Of a stretch of 64,000 bases of DNA, positions 24,952 through 51,933 are shown piece by piece. The notes beneath the pieces were generated by a model that saw only the letters and a program-made list of their open reading frames with translations, was not told the DNA's origin and did not search any database. A program made the translations under genes and the position numbers. This DNA comes from Vulcanimicrobiota bacterium (GTDB lineage Bacteria > Vulcanimicrobiota > Vulcanimicrobiia > Vulcanimicrobiales > Vulcanimicrobiaceae). Each line of letters begins with the position of its first letter. The first letter of the stretch is position 1. The stretch spans positions 284,501-348,500 of the forward strand of contig OY968762.1 in the NCBI GenBank assembly GCA_963695225.1. The letters are read 5' to 3'.

Positions 24952-25347
24952 TTAGAGTATAGCCCGCGTGGAGAGTTCGATCGAGCGCGGCACGATCGAA
25001 TCGTTCACGATGTAGGTGAAGATGAACATCCCCACGCCCGCGATCAGCGGCGCGGCCGCGATGCGGTTGAAGGAGACGCCCGAGGTGCGCAGCGCCGTGA
25101 TCTCGTTGTCGGCCGCCATGCGCCCGAACGCGACGAGCGTGGCGAAGAGGCAGCCGAACGGAAACGCCATCGGGATCGATTGCGGCACGCGGAACGCGAG
25201 GAAGCGCAGGATCAGGAAGATGTTCGCGTGCGCGTTGATCAGGTAATCCGCCGCGACGAAGAAGATGTTGATGAACCAGAACAGCATGTAGACGCCGGCC
25301 GAGAACGCGAACGGCCCGGCGAGCTCGCGCAGGATGTACGAATCCAT
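24952..25347 (-). pseudogene. LptF/LptG (YjgP/YjgQ)-family permease, N-terminal ~130 aa only
   Basis: MDSYILRELAGPFAFS... and NEITALRTSGVS match the N-terminus of ~360-aa LptF/G permeases, but the ORF stops after about one third of that length. Confidence 0.4.
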
Positions 25348-25424
25348 GATCGCCAGGCGCAGGCTTGGGCCCGGCGGTGCGATCGGTGTGGCGCGGACGC
25401 CCGGCAGCGTCGCCATGCGGGGGC

Positions 25425-25904
25425 CTAGGAGTCGCGCAGAGCCGCCGTAACCCGGGCCACGTAGGCGCGTGTCTCGGCGATCGGCGGCAGGCTGCCGTGC
25501 GCGGCATCGACGGCGCCCGGGCCCGCGTTATACGCCGCCAGCGCCAGGGCCGTATCGTGATGGTAGCGCGCGAGCAGGTCCCGCAGGTACCTGGCCCCTC
25601 CGTGGATGTTGTCTTCGGGGTCGAACCGGTTGATGACGCCGTAGGTAGCCGCCGTGCCCGGCATGAGCTGCATGAGCCCCGCGGCGCCGGCGCGGCTGAT
25701 CGCGTGGGGATCGCCCTTGGACTCGACGCGGATGACCGCCGTCAGCAGCGCCGCCGAGACCCCCGTCTGCGCCGACTCAGCCCGAACAAGCCGCTGGAGC
25801 TGCGTAGCATCCATCGAGTGCAAGCGCGAGGGCAGAAACCCGTCCCCGCCGGAGCAGCCCGCAAAGGCCGCCAGGGCGAGAAGGATCAGAAGGGGGCGTT
25901 TCAC
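25425..25904 (-). CDS. lytic transglycosylase (SLT domain) lipoprotein
   Basis: Lipobox LAAFAGC, plus the SLT motifs ESKGDPHAIS and AGAAGLMQLMPGTA. Confidence 0.85.
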   Translation of the reverse strand: MKRPLLILLALAAFAGCSGGDGFLPSRLHSMDATQLQRLVRAESAQTGVSAALLTAVIRVESKGDPHAISRAGAAGLMQLMPGTAATYGVINRFDPEDNIHGGARYLRDLLARYHHDTALALAAYNAGPGAVDAAHGSLPPIAETRAYVARVTAALRDS

Positions 25905-26098
25905 GTCGCTTGGGGTTTCGGCAGACGGAGCGGGGGTCCGCCTTGGGGGCTGCGTAGAGCTGCTGTGTGCCCTAGCGGATGCCGTCGCCGCCGTGTACCG
26001 GGTGGAAGTGCTCGACTATGCGCTCCCCTTCCCGGAAGTTGCGCGGAGAGCTACGTCTGCAGCGGGGAGCGGCTGCATCAGAGCCCAAGTACCGCTGC

Positions 26099-26836
26099 AT
26101 GGCCAATCTGGAAACCTACCGTGCGCGCTTACTTCAGGCTCAGGAAGTTGTCAAAGCGCACTTCGGTGAGGTCGATGGTGTAGCTGCAGAACACGATGAA
26201 GGGCAGAGGACCGTCGCGCAATCCGAACTGTGGGTCGGCGTCCTTTCTGGGCGCCCGGAACTTCCGGCTCTGAACGCTTCCGTCGATGAATTGGACAGTG
26301 GCCTATATAACTTGGCATCCGGACAATACCGAGAAGCATACGGGAATCTGCGCCTCAGCCTAGAGCTGGGCATGGCAGCGATTCATTTCTCCGTGGAAGA
26401 GCTCGCACTTCGGCAGTGGCTGCGCGACAAGGCAGACATTATATGGTCCAACCTCGTTCAGGATAGCGACAAAGACAAATCCCTATTTACAACGGCCTTC
26501 GTAACAGCCTTCAACGATGATATGGGTGGGCGCTGGAATCAATATAGAACGATCGCAAACTCCCTGCATCGCGAGCTGTCTACTCACGTTCACGGTGCCG
26601 CCTCGACGCGCCGATCGACAAGGACACTATTGTTCAAACGCGAGATAGCGCTTGATTGGCTCACAAAATGTCAGAACGTGCATCTATCCTGGCAGTATAT
26701 TATGCTAGCCCGATATGCTGACCACCTCAGGCTGAACAAAGCGACACTTTCATCGCCCTTTAAGGACATGTTGCGAACGCTATTTGCGTCGATAGAGGAA
26801 ACGAACGGGCTCCTGGCAGAGCTGGGCTGTGTCTGA
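26099..26836 (+). CDS. hypothetical protein, possible HEPN-like domain
   Basis: 245 aa from ATG 26099, helical-looking, with an Rx4H element (RELSTH) in the C-terminal half. The stop overlaps the next gene's ATG (TGATG). First gene after the compositional shift. Confidence 0.5.
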   Translation: MANLETYRARLLQAQEVVKAHFGEVDGVAAEHDEGQRTVAQSELWVGVLSGRPELPALNASVDELDSGLYNLASGQYREAYGNLRLSLELGMAAIHFSVEELALRQWLRDKADIIWSNLVQDSDKDKSLFTTAFVTAFNDDMGGRWNQYRTIANSLHRELSTHVHGAASTRRSTRTLLFKREIALDWLTKCQNVHLSWQYIMLARYADHLRLNKATLSSPFKDMLRTLFASIEETNGLLAELGCV

Positions 26837-28416
26837 TGTCGGATTTCTATTATCGAACGGAAGATATTCGACCTGACAGCATCCTCAAGTACTTTGTCGA
26901 GATTGCTGAAGACCGAGACATCGTCGATGCTCTCAAGCGCAGAAACCCAACCATCCTCGTTGGCAGCCGTGGTACTGGGAAGAGCTTCCTTCTGCGCGTC
27001 GCGGAAGCAGAGCTAAATAGAGACCTGGATTCAGAAAAGGTCTTGGCCGTCTACTCTACGTTCACGATGAGCCCGCTTATCCAGACGACCGATAGGCATC
27101 AATTTACACACTGGATGCTTGCACGGCTTGCAGCCAATCTCGTGCGAGTAGTCAGGCGGCGGTATTCTTCGCTACCTGAGAGTATCAAGAAGATAGGCGG
27201 CATCGCCAATGAGTCAGGTCGGACAGCCATCGAGCGCATTGCGGAGTCGTACGAGGAGTCGTGGACGCACGGGACTGCAGCGCGGATCGATCCAAAAGGT
27301 ATCCCAACTGCGGACAGTTTTAAGGAGGCAGTGGAGGAAACGTGCATAACACTGGGCCTGCAGCGAGTAGCATTCTTTATCGATGAGGCGACTCACATAC
27401 TACTCGCAGAGCAGCAGCGCCAATTCTTTACACTATTTCGCGCCTTGCGTAGCCCGTACTTGACTTGCCACGCCGCAGTCTATCCTGGCGTCACAGCGTA
27501 CGGGGACGCTTTCCAACGGAGCCACGACGCGACATTTTTATATCTAAATAGGGACGTCCTTGCACGCGAGTATATTGATCGCATGCGAGAGGTTATCGAG
27601 AAGCAGGCGGACAGTGCCACGCTAGGTGCTATAGCACGTAACGGAAGCAGCTTTGATCTTCTCGCCTACGCGGCTTCTGGTAACCCTCGACTTCTGCTTA
27701 AGACGCTTAATAGGGCGCCCAAGCTAGGCGCGCACGAAGTTAACGGTGTCATAAGATCGTTCTATCGGAGTGAGTTCTGGAACGATCACACAACGCTGAG
27801 CAATAAGTACGCACCCTATAAGACTTTCATCGATTGGGGAAGAGACTTTCTCGAGAGAGATGTGTTGGGAAAGCTTCGGAACCGAAGCCAGGCTACATCG
27901 TACCTTTACGTTGACAAAAATAGACCTAAGGCAGTGGAGCAGGCCTTGGACTTGCTAGCATACACAGGAATCATCATAGAGCACGAGGCCGGGATGCGTG
28001 GCACGCGCAGCGGCGTTGGTACGCGCTATCTTGTGAACCTCGGCACGCTATTCGCGACTCTCTCCGTTCCAACGTCTGAAGGCATTCTTCTTGTAAAGGC
28101 CTTGTCGCCAAAAAGGTTCGCAGAGTACGGCGCTAATTACCCTGCCTTCCTAGAATTGCAAAAGGCAGCATCGGACCTGCCAAGCGAGTTGGACACGTCG
28201 CCCGTTCTCCGCGAGCAACTGCGGCGCAGTATTGACGTGTTGGATATAACCGAATGGCAGAAGTCAAAACTTCGCGAACTCCGTTTTACGACCTTAGGCG
28301 ACGTATTAAGGGCGACCGATCAGGAATTGCAGGAAGCCTATTATGTAGGCCAGATCCGGTCGCGCCAAATGAAAAATGCAGCCCAAGCGGCGGTCTTTGA
28401 GTACTTGACGGGATAG
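26836..28416 (+). CDS. ORC/Cdc6-like P-loop ATPase with C-terminal RpoA alpha-CTD-like helix-hairpin-helix
   Basis: GSRGTGKS Walker A, VAFFIDEA Walker B, a winged-helix-like middle region, and the C-terminal LRELRFTTLGDVLRATDQELQEAYYVGQIRSRQMKNA, which resembles the RNA polymerase alpha CTD HhH. Confidence 0.65.
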   Translation: MSDFYYRTEDIRPDSILKYFVEIAEDRDIVDALKRRNPTILVGSRGTGKSFLLRVAEAELNRDLDSEKVLAVYSTFTMSPLIQTTDRHQFTHWMLARLAANLVRVVRRRYSSLPESIKKIGGIANESGRTAIERIAESYEESWTHGTAARIDPKGIPTADSFKEAVEETCITLGLQRVAFFIDEATHILLAEQQRQFFTLFRALRSPYLTCHAAVYPGVTAYGDAFQRSHDATFLYLNRDVLAREYIDRMREVIEKQADSATLGAIARNGSSFDLLAYAASGNPRLLLKTLNRAPKLGAHEVNGVIRSFYRSEFWNDHTTLSNKYAPYKTFIDWGRDFLERDVLGKLRNRSQATSYLYVDKNRPKAVEQALDLLAYTGIIIEHEAGMRGTRSGVGTRYLVNLGTLFATLSVPTSEGILLVKALSPKRFAEYGANYPAFLELQKAASDLPSELDTSPVLREQLRRSIDVLDITEWQKSKLRELRFTTLGDVLRATDQELQEAYYVGQIRSRQMKNAAQAAVFEYLTG

Positions 28417-28782
28417 GGAGTAACGGCACGCCGTTTGCGATTCTCGCAACGGTCAACAGAAGTGTGTAATATTGTGCAACTATGTCGGCGTGGCGCGGAC
28501 GCCGTCTAGCGCCGCCAAGGGCGGGTACCCCCACGGAGCGCGGCCATCACGTTGTATCGTTTGGGGTTTACCTGAAATATCCAATCCATCGTCAATGCCT
28601 TTGCGCTCAGAGCGCTAACCGGTTCCTCCAGCGTGCCGCTTGCCCTCACGCATTCTCACGGCGTGCCCTTCCTCCAAAGTGCCCAATCTGCCAACCGCCC
28701 GACGGGCGTACCGCCGATAATCCTGAAATACGATAATTGTCTTGGAGGTCGGGGAACGTGCCAAAGTATACCCTAAGGGGAA

Positions 28783-28831
28783 AAGGCAGATGCTCGGCGC
28801 CGTTCAAGTGACGGGCGTACTCATCTGCCTT
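28783..28831 (+). promoter_or_regulatory. 10-bp perfect inverted repeat upstream of the helicase gene
   Basis: aaggcagatg (28783-28792) and catctgcctt (28822-28831) are separated by 29 nt, ~55 nt upstream of the GTG start at 28887. Confidence 0.3.
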
Positions 28832-28886
28832 AGTCGCCTCATGGCTAAGTTCTGGTCGAGGGGCGACGCTTGCCCAGGAGGATCGA

Positions 28887-31800
28887 GTGGCGGCGCTTGA
28901 AGAGCTAAAGACAGGGTCTACGGTGAGGGGAGTCCTCTCCAGCGGCGTCGCCACCGTCGTTAGTGTGCAGTGGTACGGTTCCGACGCGGTTGAGCTCACC
29001 TACAAAGACGCGACCGGAAAGGTCGGAAACGAGCTTCTCTACCGCGATAGGGAAGCCGACCTCGAGATCGTCGAGGAAGGGCGCCCGTGGAGCTTCGACG
29101 GAGATGGCGCCCTCTTTCGCCTCGTATCGGAGGCGCAACGCATTCACCTCGCCTATCTGTTCGATCCCGTTCTTGCTGTCCATACGTCGGTAGTAGAACC
29201 GCTGCCGCATCAGATTACCGCCGTCTATGAAAGCATGCTGCCGCGGCAACCACTGCGCTTTCTGCTGGCTGACGACCCGGGAGCCGGGAAGACCATCATG
29301 GCCGGCCTTCTCATTCGTGAACTGATCGCGCGAGGAGACCTGCAGCGATGCTTGATCGTCTGCCCAGGGAGCCTCGCGGAGCAGTGGCAAGACGAACTGT
29401 ACCGGCGCTTCAACCTGCCGTTCGAGATTCTCACGAACGACAAACTCGAGACCGCGCGCACAGGCAACTGGTTCATGGAAACAAATCTAGTGATTGCGCG
29501 GCTCGACAAGTTGTCACGCAATGAAGACCTACAGCAGAAGCTTCAGGCGCCGGATTGTCGGTGGGATCTCATCGTCTGCGATGAGGCGCATAAGATGTCC
29601 GCGACCTTCTTCGGCGGCGAGGTCAAGTACACAAAGCGTTATCGGCTTGGCCAACTCCTCTCTTCGCTAACACGGCATTTCCTGCTCATGACGGCCACGC
29701 CGCATAATGGCAAGGAGGAGGACTTCCAACTCTTCATGGCCCTGCTGGATGGCGATCGTTTTGAGGGCCGATTCCGCGACGGCGCCCATACTGCCGACGT
29801 GTCGGATCTCATGCGCCGCATGGTCAAAGAAAATCTTCTGACTTTCGACGCAAAGCCTCTGTTTCCGGAGCGCTGCGCATATACGGTCCCGTACAAACTG
29901 TCGGACGGCGAGGCCGCGCTCTACAAGGCGGTCACCGAGTACGTGCGTGAGGAGTTCAATCGTGCTGAGGCGCTGGAGAATGACAGGCGCGCTGGAACGG
30001 TCGGGTTCGCTCTCACGATCCTGCAAAGGCGGCTGGCCTCCTCACCGGAGGCGATCTACCAGTCTCTCCGCCGCCGCCGAGAACGCCTCGAAAGCCGGCT
30101 GCGGGAATTGGAGTTGCTTCAGCGCGGAGGCCCAACGGGCGACGCCATCAACGCGCACATCCCCGTATTGGATGACGAAGACGTTGACGACTTGGAAGAC
30201 GCGCCGGATGCGGAAGTCGAGAAAGTTGAGGAGGCGGTCCTTGACGCCGCGACTGCCGCCAGGTCGATCGGAGAGCTCCGGATTGAGATCGGGACGCTAA
30301 AGCGACTCGAGGAATTGGCTTTGTCGATTCGGCGCGGCGGCGACGACAAGAAATGGACTGAGCTCGCGAGCTTGCTCGGAGAGATCTTCAGGCCGGCGTC
30401 CATAATGAATGGTTCGGCGGGGCGGGCGCAGACTGACGATGCGGCCACGTTAGTGCCGCCCACAATCGCCCCATCTCCGCATCAGAAGATCGTCATCTTT
30501 ACCGAACATCGGGACACGCTTAACTACCTTCAGATCCGCATCGGAACGCTGCTGGGGCGATCGCAAGCCATCGTGACAATCCATGGCGGCATGGGACGCG
30601 AGGAACGCTTGAAGGCTCAGGAGGCATTCAAGCACGATCCCGAGGTTCAGGTCTTGCTCGCGACCGATGCGGCGGGCGAGGGCATCAACCTCCAACGCGC
30701 ACACCTGATGGTGAACTACGACCTCCCCTGGAATCCGAATCGGCTGGAACAGCGGTTTGGTCGCATTCATCGGATCGGCCAAACTGAGGTCTGTCACCTT
30801 TGGAACCTGGTCGCGGAAGAAACTCGCGAAGGGGACGTCTATCGCAAGCTGCTCGAAAAGCTCGAGCAGGCGCGTAACGCTTTGGGCGGACAGGTCTTCG
30901 ACGTACTGGGGAAATTGCAATTCGATGGTCGGCCGCTGCGCGAACTGCTCATCGAGGCCATTCGATACGGCGAGAAGCCCGAGGTGCGTGCGCGGCTTAC
31001 GCAAGTCCTTGAGAACGCCCTCGATAGAGAAGCCCTACGGACTCTTCTGGAAGACCACGCGCTGGTGCACGACGCCATGGACGCCTCGCGCGTCTTTCGG
31101 ATACGAGAAGACATGGAACGCGCGGAGGCACGCCGGCTACAGCCGCACTACGTCGAGTCATTCTTTCTGGAGGCATTTCGTCGCCTTGGTGGCGCTGTGC
31201 GGCAGCGCGAAGCAGGACGCTATGAGATCACGCACGTCCCAGCTGTCGTCCGAAGCCGCGACCGCCTTATTGGCGTGGGCGAGCCAGTGCTGCCGCGGTA
31301 CGAACGCATTGCCTTCGCGAAGGCGCTCGTAGCCCCTCAGGGGCAACCGTTGGCGGCCTTCGTCTGCCCGGGCCATCCGCTCCTTAGTTCCGTCATTGAT
31401 ATCACCCTTGAGCGTCACCGTGATCTATTACGACGTGGAGCCATACTTGTTGACGAACGAGACCTCGGCACAGAGCCGCGCATCCTTTTCTTTCTAGAAC
31501 ATGCTATCCAAGATACTGGAATAACGAAGAGCGGGGATCGGCGCATTGTATCGAAGCGCCTGCTCTTTGTCGAAATCGGCAAGGACGGCATTCCACGCCA
31601 TATTAACTACGCCCCATATCTCGACTACCGTCCGCTGGCGGAAAGCGAACCCGGTATCGACGCCATCCTAAGACGTCCCCAGTGCACCTGGATCACGCGT
31701 GACCTTGAGGCAAATGCGCAGGCGTATGCGATCGCAAAGGTGGTTCCTGAGCATCTCTCGGAGGTACGCGATCGCAAGATCGCGCTACTCGCCAAGACCG

Positions 31801-32483
31801 AGGCTGCGGTCAAGGACCGCCTCACGAAGGAAATCAACTACTGGGACTTTCGCGCGGAGCAGCTCAAGGAACAGGAGCGGGCCGGCAAAGCTAACGCAAG
31901 GCTGAACTCGGGTGAAGCGCGTAAGCGCGCGGACGACCTTCAGGCGCGACTCCAAAAGCGGCTCGAGGAGATCAAGCGAGAGCGCCAGCTAGCCCCGCTG
32001 CCGCCCGTCGTGCTCGGCGGGTTGCTGGTGGTGCCGATCGGACTGATCAGGGAAATCAGAGGGACTCCCCCAGTTACCTCGCAAGGCGCAGTTGATACGC
32101 AGGCTGCGGCTGCGAGGGCTCGCGAAATCGTTATGGAGATCGAGCGTGGGCTTGGCTTCGCGCCGGTCGACCGCGAATTTGAAAAGCTTGGCTACGACAT
32201 CGAAAGCGCCATCCCCGGGACTGGACGGCTTCGCTTCCTTGAAGTTAAAGGTCGCATAGCCGATGCCGACACGGTCACCGTAACTAAGAACGAAATTCTG
32301 TATTCGCTCAACAAGCCTGACGACTTCATCCTCGCCATGGTCGCTTTCGGCGCCGACGGGGCGCACGAGGTTCGTTACCTGCGCCGTCCGTTCCACGAAA
32401 AAGGCGTAACGACTGACTTTGCCGGGGCCACCGTCAATTTTCCCTTCGCGCAACTACTCGCTGAAGCGGCTCCACCGGCGTGA
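28887..32483 (+). CDS. SNF2-family helicase with C-terminal DUF3883-type (PD-(D/E)xK-like) domain
   Basis: AGGAGGA lies 5 nt upstream of the GTG start. DDPGAGKT (motif I) and VCDEAHKM (motif II), then helicase-C motifs ([25 protein letters not shown]). The C-terminus GYDIES...LRFLEVKG fits a D..ExK nuclease-like core. Confidence 0.85.
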
Positions 32484-32499
32484 GAAATGGTCTTCCCAT

Positions 32500-35400
32500 A
32501 TGATCGTAAAGACACGAAGAAAACTCATCGAAGTAGCCCTGCCGCTCGACGCAATCAACAAGGCTTGCGCGCGGGAGAAGTCGATCCGTCACGGGCATCC
32601 AAGCACACTGCATTTATGGTGGGCGAGGCGGCCGCTAGCGGCAGCGCGGGCAGTGATCTTCGCTCAAATGGTCGACGATCCGTCGGAATACGTAGATGTG
32701 CTCCGCGCGGACCCGAAGCTGCACCGTAAGGCGGAGACCGCGCTTAAAGCCCGACTGAAGCTTTGGGAGGAAGCCCTTTCCCTCGCCAAGAGGGCCGAGG
32801 GAACGGGGCTTTCGGTCCCGGAACCGGGGCCGGCACCGACCCTCGTCGATATGCTTGAAGATCTGGAGCGCCAGAGGCTCTTCCGAATAATCGAAGATCT
32901 CGTGGTCTGGGAAAACACGACTAACGAAATGGTTCTGCAGGCTGCTCGGGACGAGATCTGGGCAAGCTGGCGTCGCGCCTGCGCGGAGAATGTTGACAAC
33001 CCTCGCGCGAAGGAACTTTTTGATCGCAATGAGCTTCCGGCTTTCCATGACCCCTTCGCCGGTGGCGGTGCGCTGCCGCTCGAGGCGCAGCGGCTGGGGC
33101 TCGAGAGCTACGCCAGCGACCTGAACCCGGTAGCGGTGCTGATTAACAAAGCGATGATCGAGATCCCGCCGAGGTTCGCGGGGAAGCCGCCGGTGAATCC
33201 GGAGTCGCTCGGGGAGGAGTCTCTCATCTCCCGAGATTGGAAGGGCGCTCAGGGCCTCGCCGAGGACGTGCGCTATTACAGCCGGTGGATGCGCAACGAG
33301 GCTGAGAAGCGCATCGGCCACCTGTACCCTAAGGTCGAAGTCACCGCCGAGATGGCGAAGACGCGGCCGGACCTTAAGCCGTACCTTGGTCAAAAGCTCA
33401 CCGTGATAGCCTGGCTTTGGGCCCGCACGGTGAAGAGTCCGAACCCGGCATTCGCGCATGTGGACGTGCCGCTCGCCTCAACCTTTATGCTCTCAACCAA
33501 AGCGGGCAAGGAGGCGTATGTCGAGCCGGTGATTGAGAACGGCGGCTATGGTTTCACGGTAAAGGTTGGAAAGCCGAAGGATGTGGAGGCGGCGAAGATC
33601 GGCACGAAGCCGGGCAGCAGCGGGGGCAGCTTCCTCTGCTTGATGTCGGGGACGCCGATACCGTTTGAGTATCTTCGGTCGGAGGCCAAGGCTGGCCGCA
33701 TGGGCGCGAGGCTAATGGCTATCGTCGCAGAGGGCAACCGAGGCCGGGTCTATCTCGCGCCAACGGCGGAAGCAGAAGCGATCGCTTTGAGCGCGCACCC
33801 AACCGATGTGCCGGAGGCCGAATTGCCTCCGAAGGCGCTTGGTTTTCGTGTTCAGGAATACGGGATGACGCGCTGGCGCGACCTTTTCACTCTCCGCCAG
33901 CTTGCAGCATTGACGACTTTCGCTGACCTGGTGCAGGAGGCGCGCGAGCAGGTGCAGCGCGACGCAATTGCCGCCGGTCTTCCCGATGACGGCCGGCCAC
34001 TCCGCGATCGTGGCGCAGGCGCGACCGCCTACGTTGATGCAGTCGCGGTGTACCTTGCGTTCGCGCTCAGTAAAGTTACTGACCTTGCGAATACGATCGT
34101 AACGTGGCGTACTGACCGCGAATCATCATACCACCTGTTTTCGCGACAGGCGATCCCGATGAGTTGGGATTACTGCGAGCTTAACGCGCTCCTGAAGGGG
34201 ACTGGAAGTCTGATAGGTGCTGCTGATTGGACTGCCGAGAGCATCGAGGGCGTCGCTGCTGGTTATGGTTCACCTTTCGGTGATGCCCGCCAACATGATG
34301 CAACGCGGCAGGACACGTCGCGCGGCAAGGTGGTTTCCACAGACCCCCCTTACTACGACAACATCGGTTACGCAGATCTTTCCGACTTCTTTTATGTCTG
34401 GTTGCGGCGCTCGTTGCGACCGGTCTTTCCGGAGCTCTTCGCGACTCTCGCTGTTCCGAAAGCGGAAGAGCTGGTTGCTACGCCGTTTCGTCATGGCAGC
34501 AAGGAAAAGGCGGAGGCGTTCTTTCTCCACGGCATGACTCAGGCGATGCACCGCCTCGCCGAGCAGGCACATGCTGCGTTCCCGGTTACTATTTACTACG
34601 CTTTCAAGCAATCCGAAACCCAAACTGCGGAAGGCATCTCGAGCACGGGCTGGGAGACGTTCCTCGACGCAGTGATTAGCGCTGGATTCGCAATAACTGG
34701 CACGTGGCCGATGCGCACGGAACTTGGCAATCGCATGGTGGGCTCAGGCACAAACGCCCTCGCCTCCAGCATCGTGCTCGTCTGCCGCGCGCGCGCGGCG
34801 GACGCGCCCTCGGCGACGCGCCGCGAGTTTGTCGCCGCGCTCAGAGCCGAGCTGCCAGTAGCGCTCGCCCACTTGCAGCGCGGAAACATCGCGCCCGTGG
34901 ACCTCGCACAGGCGGCTATCGGCCCTGGCATGTCGGTTTACACCCGCTACATCAAGGTGCTCGACGCCGAAGGTAAGCCGCTTAGCGTGAGCGAGGCTTT
35001 GGCACTCATCAACCAGATTCTCGACGAGGCGCTGGCCGAACAGGAGGGCGACTTCGACGCCGATAGCCGCTGGGCGATCACTTGGTTCGAGCAGATGGGC
35101 TTTACAGAGGGCGAATACGGCGTGGCGGAACAGCTCTCAAAGTCCAAAAACACCAGCGTCGTCGGCATGGTCGAGGCTGGCATCCTCGAGTCGAAGCGCG
35201 GCAAGGTGCGACTACTTAAGCCCGACGAGCTGTCCTCCAACTTGAGCCCGGCCAAGGACTCACGCCTAAGCGCGTGGGCGATCGTCCACCACCTGGTCGG
35301 GGCGCTCGCGAGCCGAGGCGAGAGTGCAGCCGCGGGGCTCGTCGCCACGCTCGGAGCGAACGCCGAGATCGCCCGCGAGCTGGCCTACCGACTATATACC

Positions 35401-35544
35401 CTCTGCGAGCGCAAGAAACGGGCGGGGGAGGCGCTCGCCTACAACGGCCTCGTACAAAGCTGGCCGGAGATCGTTCGCATTGCGCGCGAGGGCGCAAAGC
35501 AACAGCCTGCGCAAGCCGGCTTATTTGAAGAAGCGGAGAGCTGA
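32500..35544 (+). CDS. DUF1156-type DNA methyltransferase (amino-MTase, DPPY)
   Basis: The N-terminal [19 protein letters not shown] is the DUF1156 signature. DPFAGGG is the AdoMet loop and [12 protein letters not shown] is catalytic motif IV. 16 nt downstream of the helicase gene. Confidence 0.85.
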
Positions 35545-35547
35545 TTC

Positions 35548-38500
35548 ATGGCCGTAACCAACCAAGAGCGCGTAGGCAAGGCGATGGAGCTGCTCCGAGC
35601 GGGGCTCGCACCTTTCGTCGAGCGCGAAGTGCAGTCTGCCATCAAGGCTGGAACCGTTCGCATGGACGCGGTGCGCCGTTTTGCTGAAGACCCGATCCTA
35701 AGCAACAAGCCGATCGAGCAATGGGACGTTGCTGGCCTACTGAAGCTAATGTGGGAAACCTGGAACGACGTATTCAGGCGCACGTTGGGCTTTGCCGAAC
35801 GCAGTTTGGTAAGCGAGTTGCGTGATGTTCGCAACAAATGGGCGCATCAGGAGCCGTTTTCCAGCGATGATACGGACCGCGCCCTCGACTCGATGAATCG
35901 CCTGCTGGCGGCCATCTCCGCGCCACAAGCCGACGAGGTCGGCAAGATGAAGATGGAATTGCGCCGCCTTGTTTTCGACGAGCAGGTACGGTCTGAAAAG
36001 CGCAGGGTCGGGGGCTCGCTGATCGAGCCGGCGTCGGCCGGCAACTTAAGACCGTGGCGCGAAGTCGTAACCCCGCACGCCGACGTTGCCAGTGGTGGAT
36101 ATCAGCAGGCCGAGTTCGCGGCCGACCTCTGGCAAGTACATCTCGGCGAGGGGAGCGACGAATACCGGAAACCAGCCGAGTTCTTCCGTCGTACCTTCTT
36201 GACGGAAAGCCTTGCGCGGCTGCTGGTCGGCGCAGTGCAGCGGCTTTCCGGCCGAGGCGGCGACCCCGTAGTGCAACTCCAAACGAACTTCGGCGGCGGC
36301 AAGACGCACTCAATGCTAGCGCTGTATCACCTCTTTGGCGGCGCTGCGCCGGGCGAAATGCCAGGCATCGACGCGGTGCTCGGCGAGGCGGGCGTAAAGG
36401 CCCTACCCAAAGCCAAGCGAGTCGTGCTTGTTGGCAACAAGATCTCTCCGGGCAATCCCGTCAAGAAACCCGACGGCACGATCGTGCGCACGCTCTGGGG
36501 GGAGCTTGCCTATCAACTGGGCGGCAAAGAGGCTTTCGCGCGAATAGCCAAGGACGACGAGAGCGCGACGAACCCAGGCGACCTGCTGCGCGAATTGTTT
36601 GTAGAGTATGGCCCTTGTCTCGTGCTGGTGGACGAATGGGTCGCCTATGCGCGCCAGCTTCACGATCAAAGTGACCTACCGGCTGGTGGATTCGAGACGC
36701 AGTTCACCTTCGCGCAGGCGCTGACTGAATCGGCGAAGCTTGCCAAGAACTGCCTTCTCGTTATCTCGTTGCCGGCGTCAGATACAACTGGGTCGCCCCA
36801 CACGCAAGCCGACGACGTGGAAGTCGGAGGCGTTCGGGGGCGCGAGGCGCTTGATCGCCTCCGAAACGTCGTGGGACGTGTCGAGGCGTCGTGGCGACCA
36901 GCTACCGCAGAAGAAGGTTTCGAAATCGTCCGGCGCCGCCTGTTCGAGTCGATGGCCGCCGAGATGTTCAAACAGCGCGATCTCACTGCGCGCGCCTTCG
37001 GCGATCTCTATCAAGCGCAGGCTGCGGAGTTTCCGCCGGAATGCCGCAGCGCGGACTACGAGAAACGAATTAAAGCTGCCTATCCCATCCATCCGGAGAT
37101 ATTCGACCGCCTCTACACGGATTGGTCGACGCTCGTAAAGTTTCAGCGCACCCGTGGCGTTCTGCGACTGATGGCCGCCGTGATCCACAGCCTGTGGGAG
37201 AAGGGCGACCGCAGCCCGCTGATTATGCCTTCGACGATTCCGATTGATGATCCACGCATACAGTTCGAGCTCACGAGGTATCTCTCTGATAACTGGGTGC
37301 CGATCATCGAAAAGGACGTTGACGGCCCCAACTCGTTGCCGCTGCGGATCGACGCCGAAGTGCCGAATCTTGGTAAGCTGTCAGCGACGCGACGCGTAGC
37401 GCGCACGATCTACCTCGGCTCCGCACCCACCGCAACCGCAGCCCATCGAGGCCTAGAAGACCGCCGGGTGAAGCTCGGCTGCGTTATGCCGGGAGAACCG
37501 CCGGCGGTTTTCGGTGATGCGTTGCGACGTCTTGCAGCTGCCGCCACTTATCTCTACCAGGATGGCCCACGGGTTTGGTACTCTACGCAGCCGACCGTCA
37601 CGAAGCTGGCGGAAGACCGCGCCGAGCAGTTGAAGCGCGATCCCGACAAAGTTGGCGCTGAGCTCGACCTGCGCGTTCGCAATGATCTGAAGCGAAGCGG
37701 CGACTTTTCACGCATCCACGCTCTTCCGCGATCTGGCGCCGACGTGCCTGACGATCTCGATGCGCGTCTCGTTGTGCTGCCGGCCGAGTTTCCGTACAGT
37801 AAAGATAGTGGGAACTCAGCCGAGTCGGCTGCGAAAGCAGTCCTCGAAGCACGTGGAAACACGCCGCGCCTCTATCAGAACACTCTTGTGTTCCTCGCCG
37901 CCGACAAGGTGCGACTTCAGGACCTCGACGAGGCCTTGCGCAGATTCCTGGCCTGGTCTTCCATCGTGGCCGAGACGGTTACGCTTAATCTCGACCCACA
38001 CCAAGCTCGCCAGGCGGAGGTGCAAAAGAAGACGGCGGATGACACGGTGAACGCACGGTTGCCGGAAACGTATCAGTGGCTCCTTGTGCCCGAGCAATCC
38101 ACACCGCAGTCTCCCGTCACGTGGCAGGCGTTGCGGCTAACGGGCGGCGATGCGCTCGCGGCTCGCGCCAGCAAGAAGGTTCGCAGCGACGAACTGCTGA
38201 TCTCAAGCCTCGGCTCCACAATCCTGCGCAAGCACCTGGATGACGTCCCATTGTGGCGTGGCGACTCCGTGGCAGTTAAGCAACTCGTGGACGATTTCGC
38301 TCGTTACCTGTACCTTCCGCGCCTTGCCGGGCCCGAGGTTCTCGCCCGTGCGATCGCTGATGGCGTTGCCCTTCTCACTTGGCGCACGGATACGTTCGGC
38401 TACGCGGAAAGCTATGTTGACGCAGCCGGGCGATATCGGGGGCTGCGAGGCGGCCTCGCCATGAACATTCTGCCCGACAACCCTGGGGTACTGGTCAAAC

Positions 38501-38871
38501 CGGACATCGCGGCCCGACAGCTGGACGCCGAGACTCCGCGACCCAGCATTTCACCGATAATACCGAAGCCCGAAGGGCCGGTGCCTGGAGGTGCAGCTGA
38601 AGGCGGTGTAGCGACAGAGATCTCCTCGGCCAAGCAGCTCAAGAGATTTCATGGCTCGGTGCAGGTCGATTCCACGCGAGTCGGGCGCGACGCTGGACGA
38701 ATCGCCGACGAGGTTATCGCGCATCTCGTGGGTCAAGTGGGCGCAGAGGTTAAGGTGAGCATCGAAATCGAGGCTTGGCTCCCAAACGGGGCGAGCGATC
38801 ACCTAGTGCGTACCGTTACTGAGAATAGCCGGACTCTTAAGTTTGACGCGCATGGGTTCGAAATTGAATGA
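35548..38871 (+). CDS. Swt1-like HEPN domain fused to DUF499-type P-loop ATPase
   Basis: The N-terminal ~120 aa contain LRDVRNKWAHQ (Rx4H HEPN motif). FGGGKTHS Walker A and LVLVDEW Walker B follow, with a long C-terminal region. Starts 3 nt after the MTase stop. Confidence 0.8.
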   Translation: MAVTNQERVGKAMELLRAGLAPFVEREVQSAIKAGTVRMDAVRRFAEDPILSNKPIEQWDVAGLLKLMWETWNDVFRRTLGFAERSLVSELRDVRNKWAHQEPFSSDDTDRALDSMNRLLAAISAPQADEVGKMKMELRRLVFDEQVRSEKRRVGGSLIEPASAGNLRPWREVVTPHADVASGGYQQAEFAADLWQVHLGEGSDEYRKPAEFFRRTFLTESLARLLVGAVQRLSGRGGDPVVQLQTNFGGGKTHSMLALYHLFGGAAPGEMPGIDAVLGEAGVKALPKAKRVVLVGNKISPGNPVKKPDGTIVRTLWGELAYQLGGKEAFARIAKDDESATNPGDLLRELFVEYGPCLVLVDEWVAYARQLHDQSDLPAGGFETQFTFAQALTESAKLAKNCLLVISLPASDTTGSPHTQADDVEVGGVRGREALDRLRNVVGRVEASWRPATAEEGFEIVRRRLFESMAAEMFKQRDLTARAFGDLYQAQAAEFPPECRSADYEKRIKAAYPIHPEIFDRLYTDWSTLVKFQRTRGVLRLMAAVIHSLWEKGDRSPLIMPSTIPIDDPRIQFELTRYLSDNWVPIIEKDVDGPNSLPLRIDAEVPNLGKLSATRRVARTIYLGSAPTATAAHRGLEDRRVKLGCVMPGEPPAVFGDALRRLAAAATYLYQDGPRVWYSTQPTVTKLAEDRAEQLKRDPDKVGAELDLRVRNDLKRSGDFSRIHALPRSGADVPDDLDARLVVLPAEFPYSKDSGNSAESAAKAVLEARGNTPRLYQNTLVFLAADKVRLQDLDEALRRFLAWSSIVAETVTLNLDPHQARQAEVQKKTADDTVNARLPETYQWLLVPEQSTPQSPVTWQALRLTGGDALAARASKKVRSDELLISSLGSTILRKHLDDVPLWRGDSVAVKQLVDDFARYLYLPRLAGPEVLARAIADGVALLTWRTDTFGYAESYVDAAGRYRGLRGGLAMNILPDNPGVLVKPDIAARQLDAETPRPSISPIIPKPEGPVPGGAAEGGVATEISSAKQLKRFHGSVQVDSTRVGRDAGRIADEVIAHLVGQVGAEVKVSIEIEAWLPNGASDHLVRTVTENSRTLKFDAHGFEIE

Positions 38872-39342: not shown

Positions 39343-39966
39343 TCACGCCGGCATTCTACTTTGCTCACGATAGTTCGGGCAATCGAGCAGTCTCAGGAAG
39401 CGGCGAAATGATCTGGAGTTTCGTGCCATGGTCAGCGGATCAGCTATCTTAAGAAGTCTCGCAGCGTCAGCGACCTTATCGTACTGCCGGTTCTGATTCC
39501 TTGCGCTTGCTGCAGCCTTTAGCACCCGAGTTGCGTCTGCGTTATCAGCGCTGCCCGTTAGCGTTCTAATTGCTGCTTTGGAGAGCGGTCCCAGCACCTG
39601 CTGTAGCGCCTCTGGATCGGCGGCAAGCCAATTCTCAAACTGGTTCACCTTAATAACGGCGCTAACGGAGCACGGTAGCGAGAATGTGAGGCCCTCGAGT
39701 CTCGCTGTGAGTTCTGCAGCCCACGCGACGCAGCAGCAATCGCGACCATCCAGGTCGAGAAGAACGATAACGTGGCGAGCACCCTTACGCAGAAGCGAAT
39801 CCTGCACCGTCTTCCGCACACGGGCGGCCAATTGGCCGGCTGGTGCATGTGGCTGCAGGTCGGCCTTTGCAATCCCGACGAGCTGATGAGGCACTTTGAT
39901 TCGAGGGACAAGAAGAGGAAGCGCGTGATATTCCGATACACCGTCCACGATTAGCCCTGTGCCCAT
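39343..39966 (-). CDS. DUF4276-like protein (Toprim-like features)
   Basis: From ATG 39966: LIVDGVSEYHALP (conserved Glu), VLLDLDGRD (DxD) and FENWLAADPEAL fit DUF4276. It lies immediately downstream of the ABC-type ATPase gene. Confidence 0.6.
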   Translation of the reverse strand: MGTGLIVDGVSEYHALPLLVPRIKVPHQLVGIAKADLQPHAPAGQLAARVRKTVQDSLLRKGARHVIVLLDLDGRDCCCVAWAAELTARLEGLTFSLPCSVSAVIKVNQFENWLAADPEALQQVLGPLSKAAIRTLTGSADNADATRVLKAAASARNQNRQYDKVADAARLLKIADPLTMARNSRSFRRFLRLLDCPNYREQSRMPA

Positions 39967-39967
39967 T

Positions 39968-41281
39968 CTATTGAGAATCCTTCTCCAAGAGCTCTGGCTG
40001 CGGCGGAACTGCGACACCTAGGACACCGCTGTCTAGGAATCCAAATGTGGTCGCCTCGCCATTCGCCCAGGCTGGCAAAAAGCTAGGATCTAACTCGTTC
40101 AGCGGCTTAATGTTGGTTTCGCCGGATGACCGCCAGATGATCATGACGTTTGCCGGGTCGACGTGGTCAATAACTATGGGTGAGTGGGTTGTTAAGATCA
40201 CCTGCTTCATCTTAGAGACGCGAGTACACGCGTCGACAAGGACACGAACTATCCAAGGATGCACAGAATTCTCTGGCTCCTCTAAGAAAATCACACTCGA
40301 GCCGGGATCAAACATTGCTACAAAGAGGGCCAGAGCTTGCACGGTGCCGTCAGAGATTTCGTCGACTGACCATGGCCTGCCAACGTTTCGCTCGTGAAAT
40401 GAGAGGCCGAGCCGGCGAGACGGAGTGTAAGATACCTCGATCTCGTCAAGACTCGGTAGAATTGCTTGCATTAGGCTCACGATCTCACGCCACGCAGCCT
40501 TATGTCTCTTCTGCAGCGTGTCGATGACAGCCGGAAGGTTTCCGCCATGTTTGCTAAGTTGAGGCTTCGGCCCCGGAACACCCTCATCACGCGAGATGTT
40601 CGGGTGAATTTGGAAGACTCTAATTTCGCCCATTACATTAGAGAAAGCAATCAGCGGCAGCGCGAAGCGACCGAGCGTTGTAATGAACAGCTCGGAACTG
40701 TTGAGAATACGGTCCGAGCGAGATGCAAAGTACTGGACATCTTGCACGTCAAGAAGCTGAGATCGTACGACGCGATCCGGCCGCTTCTTGATATCCGGCC
40801 GTTTTTTGATATAGTCGATAACGATCTTATCCTCAGAGCGATGTGCTCTAAGAAGGGGCGTATTCTTCTCTTCGAACTCATGTGAGATTTCAAGACTCTC
40901 GCTAACCACGTAGTATTCGGCTCGAATTGCAGCTCCCTTAGCAAGAAAGCTAAAGGAATGAACTATTGTAACCCAATCGCCGTTATCGGGTCGAATTGCC
41001 CGGGGAATATCATTCGATTCGAGGCGTACAGAGACGGTGAATTCAATTGGCCGCTTGGTGCGCCTCATTTTGCGGTGCGCGATGTTCTCGTAGCCACCCT
41101 TCGACGCTACGGCGATTTCGAGTCCGAAGCGATAGACGACCGCAAGAAACTCAAAGCAGTCACTTAAGTTCGTCTTGCCAGATGCATTTGGCCCTGCAAA
41201 GACTGTGAACTGCTTTGGCGAGAACTCGACGTCTCGTAAGGATTTATAGTTGCTGATCTTAAGGTGCTGAAGTTGAATGAT
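39968..41281 (-). CDS. ABC/SMC-type (AAA_15/21-like) ATPase
   Basis: My translation of the minus strand upstream of the track ORF continues in frame: (I)IQLQHLKISNYKSLRDVEFSPKQFTVFAGPNASGKTNLSDCFEFL. This supplies the Walker A that the 39968..41068 track ORF lacks. C-terminal ISDGT, IFLEEPENSVHP and TTHSP motifs are present. There is no ATG, GTG or TTG between the upstream stop and the P-loop. Confidence 0.7.
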   Translation of the reverse strand: MIQLQHLKISNYKSLRDVEFSPKQFTVFAGPNASGKTNLSDCFEFLAVVYRFGLEIAVASKGGYENIAHRKMRRTKRPIEFTVSVRLESNDIPRAIRPDNGDWVTIVHSFSFLAKGAAIRAEYYVVSESLEISHEFEEKNTPLLRAHRSEDKIVIDYIKKRPDIKKRPDRVVRSQLLDVQDVQYFASRSDRILNSSELFITTLGRFALPLIAFSNVMGEIRVFQIHPNISRDEGVPGPKPQLSKHGGNLPAVIDTLQKRHKAAWREIVSLMQAILPSLDEIEVSYTPSRRLGLSFHERNVGRPWSVDEISDGTVQALALFVAMFDPGSSVIFLEEPENSVHPWIVRVLVDACTRVSKMKQVILTTHSPIVIDHVDPANVMIIWRSSGETNIKPLNELDPSFLPAWANGEATTFGFLDSGVLGVAVPPQPELLEKDSQ

Positions 41282-41695: not shown

Positions 41696-43574
41696 CTAGT
41701 CCGCGTTGCACTTCAGAGGAATGTCCAGCCGAAGCTGCCGGCATCCGGCGGAGATTAGCGCATGGTAGGTAGCGTCGAGATCGGCTAGCGGCGGGACGAA
41801 GATCATCATCCCGTCGCGCCCACGCGTCATGAGGACGCGGTAGCTATTGAGCCTTAGCTGTCGAGCGTCGTGGGCCTTGCTCCGAACGACGGATGTGGCC
41901 CATTCTCTGCCGTTCCACACGAGGTCGGTATCCCAGCCAACGATTGGGAAATCGAGCTCGAGGCCTTGGCACGAGAACTCCGTCGCGACTTCGAGCATCT
42001 GGCAGCACGATTTCAGCGACGACGCGGGTTCGTTATACCAGGGACCGGGACGGAAGCCGCGAGTCGCTTGGAACGATGTGTTCATTCCGAAGAGCGGGAG
42101 ATGCTTCGCCTTCGATGAGCCGAGAAGCCCGAAGCGCCTTTCTTCCTCGCCCTCGTAACGAGCGCGAACGTAGCGCTTCGCTTCCTCAAGATCGCGTGTG
42201 ACATAGAGATCGAATGACGCGCGCTGCATCGAATCGGCGATGGACGCCGCCTCCGAGAGCTGCCCGTCGAGAACATGCTTCACCCAGTCGTGAAGGCCGC
42301 CGGCGGCATGCGATCGCAGCGTCACCTTGAGCTCGAGCGCATCGTCGACGACGACCTTCTGACCACCAAACACGGAAGCCACGTGCTGGGGGCAATGGAT
42401 CGTCCAATCGCCGCCGCTTGCCTTTATGGCGTCGCTCCAGAGCCGAAGGCCGCCCTCCTCGCCCAAGTGGATCTCCTGGCCCTCGCCGATCAGGCCGACG
42501 AGCATCGCCCAATCCGGCGTCCTCATGCCCAGCTTCACGAAGTCCTCGGGCTCCGAGAGTGGGTGCCCCCGTTTGCCCATCACGCGCTCGCTATCCCAGG
42601 CGCGCTGTGCCTCATCGTAGACCCAGATGTGTTCGGTCGGCAGCTTCTTTGAGGCGCCGCCGTAGCGAACGAGAAAACCATGCACGTCTTGAACGAAGAT
42701 CCGATTCTTGAGGGCGTGTTGGAGGACGTCGACCAGCGGGCCGTTGCCGGAGAGAAACACTGCCGGGCCGTTCCGCTTCGTCGTCCGAGAAGCGCGTCAA
42801 GTACACGAACTGAAGGCCAACGAGCGTCTTCCCGGCGCCGGGTACGCCGGTGACGAGCGCGAGGTGACGCTCCCCGTTCCTCTGCGCTTGGCCGGCGATG
42901 CGCTGAAGCGACTCCAGTGCCTCTGGGATTCCGGCACTCGACGCCCGGCGGATCTGCGGCAGTGCCTCATGTTCAAATATCCGGCGAGCAGCGGCGACCA
43001 ATGCCGGCAGAGGCTCGTAGTCGGCTTCGACCCATTGCGAAATGCTTGCCCGCGCGAGTTCGTGATTGTCCGGCACGGACTGAAGATACGAGGCGAGGGT
43101 CTTGCCTCCAAGGATGGTGACGTTATCGACATCCTGTGCGGGCAGGGACGCATCGTCGAGGGCCAGGATCGGCCGGACGTCGAGCTCGTGCGATCCGGCA
43201 TGATATTCGCGGAGATCGCGCGCATACGCGTCGACTTGATCGACGTCGCTCTGCTCGGCGTACTGCCGCCCTTTGAACTCGATCACATGCGCCGCCGGCC
43301 CCGTCAGGAGGACAACGTCCGGCCGCCGCCCGCGTTCCCGTGGTAGTTCGTACTCGAAAACGAGCCCCCAGTGCCGCACGCCCGGCCGTTGTTCGACGAG
43401 CTCATGGCATTCGCGCTTGAGGACCCTGATAGAATCGGCCCACGCCCGGATCTGCCCATCGCCGAGCGGCAGATTGAGATCGTGAATCAGCGCCGAGAAG
43501 TCCTTTTGCAAAGTAGCCGGCGTCTCTGCCAGGAACTCATCGATCGTACCGTACCAGCCGCAACCGTTATTGAT
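41696..43574 (-). pseudogene. DUF2075-family ATPase/helicase-like protein, interrupted by a 1-nt frameshift
   Basis: Track ORFs 42612..43511 (VTGVPGAGKT... FVYLTRFSDDEAERP) and 41696..42760 (FLSGNGPLVDVLQ...) are two halves of one DUF2075-type protein. The frames join at the run gccgggcc (42762-42769). Confidence 0.7.
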
Positions 43575-49202: not shown

Positions 49203-49603
49203 GTGTCAACGGCAGCGACTGAAGACGGCACGTTGCTTTAGTGTTTCGCAATGGACAATGCGTAACGACTTCGTGCTCGTGGAGGGCACCCCGATTCTTA
49301 CGCCAGCGGGACCACAATTTCGAGCCGCCTAAACGGCTCGTTCTACGGAGGTCCCCATGGCCCGCAAACGACACTCCCCCGAGTCGATCGCGAAGGTCCT
49401 ACGTCAAGCCGAGTCCGGCGTTCCGATCGGCGAACTCGCGCGCAAGACCGGAGTCCACGAGAACACGGTCCATCCTCGGCGGGCAGCTAAAATCGCACAC
49501 CTGGGGGCACTTCAAAACCGCACACTACCCGGTGGGCAGTTCAAAATCGCACACCTGATGTAGCCTCGGGCACGCCAAGGGTGGCAGCGCGAACAGCGTT
49601 GCC

Positions 49604-51172: not shown

Positions 51173-51933
51173 CCAACGACGAACTCGACCGCGCTCTGCG
51201 GCAACTGCGCATGAGCGGCATGGCCGACGCCGTTCCGATCCGAACGCAGCAGGCCCGTGCTGAGAACCTCGGCCCGCTCGATTTCATCAGCTTACTCGTG
51301 CACGATGAGCTGCAGCGGCGGCGGGATCGACTCATCGAGCGCCGCGTCAAGGCCGCCGGCTTTCGCGACCAGAGAACGCTCGACACGTTCGACTGGAAAT
51401 TCAACACGCTCGATCGCGCGCTCATCTTCGAACTGGCCAACGGGCGCTTTATCGAACAACACGAGGACGTTCTGTTACTCGGCAACGCCGGCGTTGGGAA
51501 AAGCCATATCGCGCAGGCGATCGGCATGGCCGCTATTCATGCTGGTTTCCGCGTATTGTACCGCGAGGCGCACGCGCTCTTCGAAGACTTCCTTCTCGCT
51601 GGCGCGACCGGCGAGCGCGGCACCGCGATCGCGACCTTTAGCGAGATACCCTTGCTCATCATCGACGACTTGGGGATGCGCAAACTCCCCGCCAACGCAG
51701 CCGAGGATTTGCTCGAAATCGTCATGCGACGCTACGAGCGAGCATCGACGATTCTGACCTCGAACCGACCGCTCGACGATTGGCCTAAGCTCTTCGGCGA
51801 CACGCCCGCCGTTGCGGCCTTTCTCGACCGGCTAATGCATCATTCGCATCTGATCGAGATTCGCGGCAAGAGTTATCGGCTCCACGAGCACAGCATCGCG
51901 GCCCGCCACCGGAAGGCAAAGGCGAGCGCGTAG
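51169..51933 (+). CDS. istB: IS21-family helper ATPase IstB
   Basis: GNAGVGKSH Walker A and LLIIDDLG Walker B; DnaC-like AAA+. Confidence 0.9.
   Translation: MTNDELDRALRQLRMSGMADAVPIRTQQARAENLGPLDFISLLVHDELQRRRDRLIERRVKAAGFRDQRTLDTFDWKFNTLDRALIFELANGRFIEQHEDVLLLGNAGVGKSHIAQAIGMAAIHAGFRVLYREAHALFEDFLLAGATGERGTAIATFSEIPLLIIDDLGMRKLPANAAEDLLEIVMRRYERASTILTSNRPLDDWPKLFGDTPAVAAFLDRLMHHSHLIEIRGKSYRLHEHSIAARHRKAKASA

Follow-up and report, generated by a model that had tools for sequence, protein, structure and literature searches.

The stretch of contig OY968762.1 analyzed here (64,000 nucleotides, positions 284,501 to 348,500 of the forward strand in the GenBank assembly GCA_963695225.1 of a Vulcanimicrobiota bacterium; hereafter, the window) carries, at the upstream end of a low-GC island, two overlapping genes that we denote A and B (Table 1). 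Gene A encodes a 245-amino-acid (aa), predicted all-helical protein, whereas gene B encodes a 526-aa ATPase of the ORC/Cdc6 type that ends in a domain resembling the C-terminal domain of the RNA polymerase alpha subunit (alpha-CTD). Tentatively, we interpret this pair as a self-contained, horizontally mobile, two-gene conflict module, a candidate system that most likely is directed against phages and is independent of the Hma system encoded next to it.

Genes A and B meet in the pentanucleotide TGATG at 26834-26838, where the stop codon of A (TGA, 26834-26836) and the start codon of B (ATG, 26836-26838) have one base in common. At 73 homologous loci, offsets from the stop of A to the start of B vary between -27 and +7 nucleotides (nt), and the two genes overlap in 21. 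Two in-frame alternative starts of A lie further upstream, at 25979 and 26018; ATG 26099 was taken as the start because it is supported by the alignment of homologs. The public annotation starts A at GTG 26018, yielding a 272-aa product (protein P0280), whereas the alignment prefers ATG 26099; neither of these two starts has a clear Shine-Dalgarno sequence in front of it. The GC content drops from 0.690 at 25001-26000 to 0.544 at 26001-27000 and remains at 0.52-0.63 up to about 44 kb, the cassette itself being at 0.53-0.54 compared to 0.69 for the genome. The HmaA gene starts at 28887, 470 bp 3' of B and on the same strand. Thus, the co-directional overlapping pair, the compositional break and the distance to the downstream module, all of which were noticed in an earlier note made from the letters of this DNA, are borne out by the open reading frame (ORF) coordinates and the GC profile. 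In the closest relative, the B protein is 77% identical and the DNA 68% identical, and DNA homology is confined to 26189-28416, stopping at the B stop codon; therefore, the spacer between B and HmaA was placed outside the cassette. Promoter, terminator and Rfam scans of the 25.0-29.5 kb region yielded nothing significant above background. As a separate observation, a 41-nt imperfect direct repeat (25383-25423 and 28485-28525; 78% identity, with 18 of the first 19 nt in agreement) is present on both sides of A-B; this could be an insertion scar or, possibly, a chance match in GC-rich DNA.

Protein B passes the gathering cut-off of the Pfam family PF24389, 'ORC-CDC6-like' (49 bits against 27), with a match that covers only the N-terminal 60 residues of B on a 571-position model. 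More than 1,500 homologs of equal length were detected, under the UniRef name 'ORC-CDC6 family AAA ATPase', and a precomputed ORC-CDC6 annotation is attached to all listed homologs except for one truncated protein. The AlphaFold2 (AF2) model of B, built from 29 sequences, has a predicted local distance difference test (pLDDT) score of 83.6. In a Foldseek search with this model, the top 12 PDB matches were Orc1/Cdc6 proteins, subunits of the origin recognition complex (ORC) and SSO1545, all with probability 1.00; the best ones were the archaeal Orc1/Cdc6 structures 2qby_B (E-value 3e-6), 2v1u and 1fnn along with eukaryotic ORC subunits, the alignments to Orc1/Cdc6 extending over approximately 450-490 columns, and RdrA, clamp loaders and DnaA were among the more distant matches. 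Thus, the assignment of B to ORC/Cdc6-like ATPases, which the earlier note had made, holds on both profile and structural grounds. Both Walker motifs are present as described, and K49, S50, D183, E184, R239 and R285 are conserved in 100% of the 74 aligned homologs. Given the invariance of K49, D183, E184, R239 and R285, B is expected to be catalytically active, as an ATPase of the ORC/Cdc6 clade of AAA+ proteins. The roles of R239 and R285 as arginine finger and sensor-2, respectively, are assigned by position only, the GNPR motif that includes R285 presumably being placed like the GDAR-type motif of Cdc6/Orc1.

The least conserved parts of B are a helical insert at approximately residues 100-160 and a linker at 441-460. 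In the secondary structure of the AF2 model, the insert sits between the strands 69-75 and 177-183; conservation in its sequence blocks is 0.44-0.52 compared to 0.85-0.88 at the catalytic motifs. The HEH insert that follows strand 2 is a hallmark of ORC/Cdc6 proteins (PMC12839542), and the insert of B is located in the corresponding place. Downstream of the ATPase domain, the DSSP elements E356-360, H365-377, E380-388 and E394-400 make up the winged-helix region.

The similarity of the C-terminal part of B to alpha-CTD is apparent when the family is considered as a whole. The tail segment LRELRFTTLGDVLRATDQELQEAYYVGQIRSRQMKNA, which the earlier note had compared to the helix-hairpin-helix (HhH) region of RpoA, is found in B and is conserved throughout the family. 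Searched alone, B from the window scores below the threshold against PF03118 (RNA_pol_A_CTD; 12.2 bits against a cut-off of 23.8, E-value 0.16), and the NCBIfam RpoA model run against the whole of B produces a weak match to residues 446-506 (E-value 0.068). When the tails of 25 homologs were scanned separately, PF03118 matched 20 of them (best E-value 6.5e-6) and HHH_5 matched 13; the matches to PF03118 are collinear over the two HhH units, and the hairpin glycine is conserved. A profile of the tail compared with PDB sequences gave 17 weak matches, 13 of which were RpoA alpha-CTD chains (E-values 0.4-1.5). An arginine-rich helix comes after the second hairpin and contains R508 (invariant) and R510 (99%); G505 is conserved in 93% of the 74 sequences. 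Taken together, these weak but consistent sequence similarities support the description of the tail as an alpha-CTD-like (HhH)2 domain at the level of the family, single sequences remaining sub-threshold, and the reading of the tail in the earlier note can be retained at that level.

The link between A and B is strict. In all 78 genome loci with enough upstream sequence, an A homolog is located directly 5' of B on the same strand, encoded by an ORF of 220-300 aa that matches the A profile with E-values from 1e-19 to 1e-43, save for one weak, truncated case. These loci represent Pseudomonadota, Acidobacteriota, Bacteroidota, Bacillota, Actinomycetota, Cyanobacteria, Planctomycetota, Verrucomicrobiota and Nitrospirota as well as a Methanosarcina. 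Another 18 loci, taken from plasmids, IMG/VR and metagenomes, all show this arrangement as well, which brings the count to 96 of 96; the homologous pairs thus travel together, a point that the earlier note had asked to be checked. The pairwise identities of A and B are correlated (r=0.87, Mantel p=0.001), and A evolves faster, with a mean identity of 33% compared to 53% for B. Clustering of 960 flanking ORFs revealed no conserved third gene. A relative of B is encoded by 197 of the 185,579 species representatives (about 0.1%), which are distributed over no fewer than ten phyla, with a Methanosarcina among them. Among 72,556 plasmid records, there were 3 full-length matches; the pair is present in 8 of the 2.9 million IMG/VR contigs, often close to the contig ends. 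A tblastn search of 50,697 phage genomes with B produced no match, and nothing meaningful was found for either protein in PHROGs. Such a patchy spread over many phyla is characteristic of mobile accessory cassettes.

The genomic neighborhoods of the pair are diverse. The copy in the closest relative adjoins a DISARM-like locus with MNT/HepT; a plasmid copy in Planktothrix lies near Ssp-like phosphorothioation genes, a helicase and PLD; and a copy in an integrative mobilizable element is accompanied by an Eco29kI restriction-modification (RM) system and a MORC-like ATPase/Mrr-helicase pair. On a megaplasmid of Clostridium butyricum (L089:4559-8662), the pair is located directly 3' of a large serine recombinase, a position that has been described as a marker of defense cargo (PMC12632615). 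Integrases, relaxases or ParB are encoded near some of the copies. Among 99 flanking proteins surveyed at 16 loci were RM systems of types I, II and IIG, MADS components, DrmMI, PbeA and three integrases, along with many housekeeping families.

The family of protein A, delineated by a profile search of 1.84 billion representatives, comprises about 370 clusters (50% identity), nearly all of them 230-260 aa long. A has no significant match in Pfam, NCBIfam, PADLOC or PHROGs, and neither the single sequence nor a 41-sequence profile matched any PDB sequence. In the AF2 model, A consists of helices only. Eight residues, R85, E89, S98, W107, W116, S161, H165 and G166, are invariant in 88 homologs, with R158 and R205 each at 98% and E159 at 91%. 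The earlier note had singled out an Rx4H element (RELSTH) compatible with a HEPN RNase. This string is indeed present, at residues 158-163 of a helical protein, but H163 is found in less than 85% of the homologs, being kept in the closest subfamily only. Because the histidine that is invariant across the 88 homologs is H165, the conserved motif is R158-x6-H165, and the family consensus, YRECSEYVHGN, is likewise of the Rx6H form. In the model, Rx6H closes the C-terminal end of the helix 132-165 and is followed by a low-confidence loop; E89 is part of the long helix 77-107 that comes before, and a poorly ordered insert (108-131) separates the two helices. HEPN domains contain an Rx4-6H motif, an acidic residue in helix 2 and an insert between helices 2 and 3 in places matching those in A (PMC3710099). 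Thus, judging by the conservation pattern and the predicted model, the anatomy of A fits that of a HEPN domain, and we treat A as a candidate rather than an established member of this superfamily. The only recurrent Pfam match of the A family is the uncharacterized family DUF5677 (PF18928), detected, below the threshold, in 17 of 112 and 2 of 41 members, with the best E-value of 0.0018; the matches are collinear, residues 58-104 of A aligning with positions 7-53 of the model and residues 130-167 with positions 117-156. Genes encoding DUF5677 have been reported to be enriched near defense-linked serine recombinases (PMC12632615).

Another line of evidence on the nature of A comes from distant relatives of B. 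These ATPases, which are of the PF24389 type and form a sister clade (559-587 aa; 23-27% identity to B, with E-values from 1e-11 to 1e-26), contain a zinc ribbon before the C-terminal tail, and the tail itself is HhH-like (one weak match to HHH_5, otherwise read from the sequence). In all 7 loci, the ATPase is immediately followed by a gene for a partner of 274-326 aa; in the family of this partner, E-x3-R and R-H-x3-H motifs are invariant, there is a weak match to HEPN_RiboL-PSP (E-value 0.0012), and one of the members is named a RiboL-PSP-HEPN protein in UniRef. The sister unit, which seems to be undescribed as well, resembles A-B in that a homologous ATPase with an HhH tail is encoded in a tight gene pair whose other product is helical and bears an R..H motif; it differs in that the partner lies 3' of the ATPase gene and has canonical HEPN motifs. 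No significant similarity was detected between the sister partner and A (hhalign P 0.1). Because a sister clade of B is paired with a partner bearing textbook HEPN motifs, this unit provides the best indirect support for A as a HEPN-type partner. In two of the seven loci (L094 and L097), an N6 DNA methylase is encoded 5' of the sister unit.

Combining these observations, we arrive at a candidate mechanism for A-B as a two-gene conflict module. Protein B would bind nucleic acid through the winged helix and the alpha-CTD-like (HhH)2 tail and, on meeting a DNA structure or a protein derived from an invader, would shift its nucleotide or oligomeric state; the variable insert after strand 2 might serve as the recognition or specificity surface. 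Protein A, the translationally coupled partner, would be the likely effector, its R85/E89 pair and R158-x6-H165 motif being arranged as in HEPN RNases. B would then either restrain or activate A, and cleavage of RNA by A might result in growth stop or abortive infection. The proposal of a novel NTPase-plus-effector conflict system in the earlier note gains from the strict synteny, the mobility and the lack of a match to the named systems searched; the HEPN identity of the effector, like the defense role itself, stays conjectural.

Several observations weigh against this interpretation. The AF2 model of A, built from 11 sequences, is of moderate confidence (pLDDT 74), and Foldseek searches of PDB and BFVD with this model retrieved only generic helical bundles (vinculin tail, BAR domains, G-protein-coupled receptors; E-values >0.6); the best E-value against PDB was 0.7, and Csm6' first appeared at rank 20, with a probability of 0.14. 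The local helix-2 motif of A is R85-x3-E89, with alanine in position 93, rather than the usual E-x3-[KR]. Pfam scans of 153 members of the A family produced a lone HEPN match (PF05168, in one member, E-value 0.062), and hhalign comparisons of the A family with the Swt1-type HEPN domain of HmaC, with HepT and with the sister RiboL-PSP-like family were non-significant (P ~0.1 at best). The Rx6H motif is placed as in HEPN domains, but none of the profile and fold comparisons, which the earlier note had called for, is significant. A gene encoding DUF5677, the Pfam family nearest to A but perhaps unrelated to it, conferred no phage defense when expressed in Enterococcus (PMC12632615). Four of the 11 annotated contexts of the pair are solitary inserts among housekeeping genes; because of these, the association with defense islands is only suggestive, some copies of the pair, but not others, being located in such islands. 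Finally, with respect to a literal alpha-CTD function, W474 of B aligns, in HMMER, with the 'LSVRS' arginine of the Bacillus subtilis alpha-CTD, which we take to be the equivalent of the DNA-contacting R265 of Escherichia coli RpoA. Because the position aligned with R265 is occupied by tryptophan and the invariant arginines follow the second hairpin, the tail of B is to be regarded as a relative of alpha-CTD, not a copy.

Alternatively, the pair could be a conflict or defense module in which A has no catalytic role, being an adaptor, regulator or sensor instead, and B is the effector, acting, for example, by ATP-dependent binding or remodeling of invader DNA or by interfering with transcription via the alpha-CTD-like domain. 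We consider this division of labor unlikely. In its favor, A shows no significant match to any nuclease family and is the faster-evolving protein of the two, as is often the case with sensors, and B combines two nucleic-acid-binding modules with a complete ATPase site. However, the invariant polar residues of A (R85, E89, S98, S161, H165), together with R158 and R205, look more like an active site, the partner in the sister clade bears canonical HEPN motifs, and B contains no recognizable effector domain.

That the pair is an addiction module of the toxin-antitoxin (TA) kind, maintained by post-segregational killing rather than by defense, appears improbable. A small, two-gene, translationally coupled and mobile unit, often solitary amid housekeeping genes and sometimes found on plasmids or beside recombinases, is what such a module would look like, but a 526-aa AAA+ protein with DNA-binding domains would be an atypical antitoxin, and plasmid copies are rare; the boundary between TA and abortive infection is, in any case, blurred. 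We attach a still lower probability to a role in replication, partition or transcription control of a mobile element, with B as an ORC-like origin binder and A as its loader or regulator. Replication initiators are the best structural matches of B, and some copies of the pair are part of integrative elements or have integrases, relaxases or ParB nearby; nevertheless, the pair moves alone, without conserved replication, integration or transfer genes found in its vicinity, several copies are inserted between housekeeping genes with no surrounding element, and no iteron-type repeats were seen adjoining the cassette. A distinct version of the two-gene conflict module, which we mention as a long shot, is that the tail of B is a decoy mimicking alpha-CTD, such that phage factors hijacking host transcription by docking on alpha-CTD or modifying it would engage the decoy, which would switch B and release A, a new and highly divergent HEPN-type RNase; if true, this would amount to guard/decoy immune sensing based on a domain of the transcription machinery.

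The remaining explanation, put forward in the earlier note, sees A-B as serving the downstream Hma in an accessory capacity, as its sensor or regulator. This 'Type-1 BREX-related' system (PMC12839542) occupies 28887-38871 and includes an SNF2 helicase with a NOV_C domain, a DUF1156 methylase and a DUF499 ATPase with an N-terminal Swt1-type HEPN domain; according to PADLOC (1688, 1518 and 1160 bits for HmaA, HmaB and HmaC, respectively), it is complete without the pair. The co-directional position 470 bp 5' of Hma, in the same low-GC island, notwithstanding, a sensor role is refuted as a general rule and highly improbable because tblastn searches with HmaA, HmaB and HmaC found none of the Hma genes within 10 kb of the pair in 80 genomes (0/80), close relatives adjoin quite different systems or housekeeping genes, and the DNA homology with the nearest relative ends at the B stop codon. 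A-B is therefore an independent neighbor of Hma and, in genome annotation, should not be merged into it.

Comparison with known systems places B in an existing but uncharacterized Pfam family (PF24389 has no assigned function, partner or system) and A in no described family. B shares with Orc1/Cdc6 and ORC (2qby, 2v1u, 1fnn, 7jk6; Foldseek E-values from 3e-6 to 1e-4) the AAA+ core, the lid and the winged helix. It differs from them in the low identity (11-16%), the large variable helical insert, the alpha-CTD-like tail, the obligate small partner gene, the patchy horizontal distribution and the lack of origin context. The logic of A-B, in which a P-loop NTPase switch is coupled to a helical domain bearing an R..H motif, is shared by the anticodon nucleases PrrC and RloC and by HmaC (PMC3710099, PMC12839542), all of which, however, are single fused polypeptides with recognized HEPN domains. 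The domain order of HmaC, namely HEPN, ORC/Cdc6-STAND-like AAA+ and winged helix-turn-helix, mirrors the order of the genes, A then B. We also considered A-B as an 'unfused HmaC' and rejected this possibility: hhalign detected nothing between B and HmaC and no similarity between A and the HEPN domain of HmaC. DS-41 (DefensePredictor 'AAA2'), a validated single-gene system of E. coli, and the P-loop ATPases of the NCBIfam Sll1717 family share the N-terminal P-loop region with B (E-values 4.6e-7 and 6.5e-9, respectively). Identification of B as DS-41 was ruled out by the score (29 bits against a cut-off of 370) and the single-gene architecture; against the Sll1717 model, B scored 35 bits, with a cut-off of 75. 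Among the PADLOC-DB 2.0 and NCBIfam anti-phage models, A matched none, and B matched only mad8 (E-value 0.008) and, as above, DS41_1; thus, in agreement with the earlier note, the pair falls into no named defense system covered by these models. A literature search on PF24389, the ORC-CDC6 family, Sll1717, alpha-CTD-like domains and the combination of HEPN, AAA+ and HhH did not turn up a description of the A-B pair. What is unusual in A-B is the ORC-like putative sensor with an alpha-CTD-like tail and the previously unrecognized family of the putative effector; the NTPase-plus-effector logic is known.

Should A-B prove to be a defense system, it would be a widespread two-gene module, encoded by about 0.1% of the species representatives in at least ten phyla plus one archaeon, with a sensor built on the scaffold of a replication initiator (ORC/Cdc6) and equipped with a DNA-binding tail like that of RNA polymerase alpha. 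The A proteins would then comprise a new, highly divergent effector family of about 370 clusters that is missed by the current profile libraries. Considered together with the sister unit of an ATPase and a RiboL-PSP-HEPN protein, such a finding would establish that ATPases of the PF24389 family are a general switch for RNase effectors.

Table 1. Coordinates of the A-B cassette, its motifs and domains (in the window) and of the loci encoding the sister two-gene unit (locus:coordinates)
Feature	Coordinates	Strand	Remarks
Gene A, 245-aa all-helical protein, candidate HEPN-like effector	26099..26836	+	ORF, start ATG 26099; AF2 model
A, R85-E89 (LRLSLEL)	26351..26365	+	Both invariant; predicted helix 77-107
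A, R158-G166 (RELSTHVHG)	26570..26596	+	Conserved R158-E159-x-S161-x-x-V164-H165-G166, Rx6H
Gene B, 526-aa ORC/Cdc6-clade AAA+ ATPase with winged helix and alpha-CTD-like HhH tail	26836..28416	+	ORF; Pfam PF24389 family
B, Walker A GSRGTGKS, residues 43-50	26962..26985	+	K49 invariant
B, helical insert after strand 2, ~residues 100-160	27133..27315	+	Most variable part of the ATPase domain
B, Walker B FFIDEA, residues 180-185	27373..27390	+	D183, E184 invariant
B, GNPR, residues 282-285	27679..27690	+	R285 invariant, candidate sensor-2 arginine
B, winged-helix region, ~residues 355-405	27898..28050	+	Strand, helix, two long strands
B, C-terminal (HhH)2 domain, ~residues 446-526	28171..28413	+	Resembles RNA polymerase alpha-CTD
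Spacer between B and HmaA, 470 bp	28417..28886		Outside the cassette
Sister loci, first four	L094:5001-7541, L095:4947-7502, L096:4277-6831, L097:4232-6918		
Sister loci, other three	L106:2365-4958, L107:7977-10458, L108:1457-4017		

Further 3', the window encodes an AAA_21 ATPase, a split Schlafen-type helicase, an SMC-like ATPase, a trypsin-like peptidase, an IS21 element and a STAND-like ATPase, and so is an island of defense and mobile-element genes, in line with the defense island perceived in the earlier note; no tRNA was found in the window. The lowest-GC part of the island (39343-41068, reverse strand) contains a gene for a 366-aa AAA_21/AAA_15 ATPase (ABC/OLD-type) that overlaps a 224-aa ORF, and this pair may be another small two-gene defense unit. 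The helicase at 41696-43511 (reverse strand), of the Schlafen-group-3/DUF2075 type, is divided between two overlapping ORFs, 42612-43511 encoding the P-loop and 41696-42760 the remainder, and probably is a frameshifted pseudogene. Within the reverse-strand ORF for the 986-aa SMC-like AAA_23 protein, the AT skew is strongly negative, at -0.26 to -0.34 (44001-46000), the GC content being genome-typical at 0.69. A 300-nt direct repeat with 96% identity (46839-47138 and 56828-57127, 9989 nt apart; also 47502-47530 and 57491-57519) encloses the trypsin-like peptidase, the IS21 element (istA/istB at 49604-51933, with inverted repeats at 49503-49525 and 51992-52014) and an AAA_16-TPR ATPase (53071-55575); this region looks like an insertion of about 10 kb with a duplicated fragment of the target gene.

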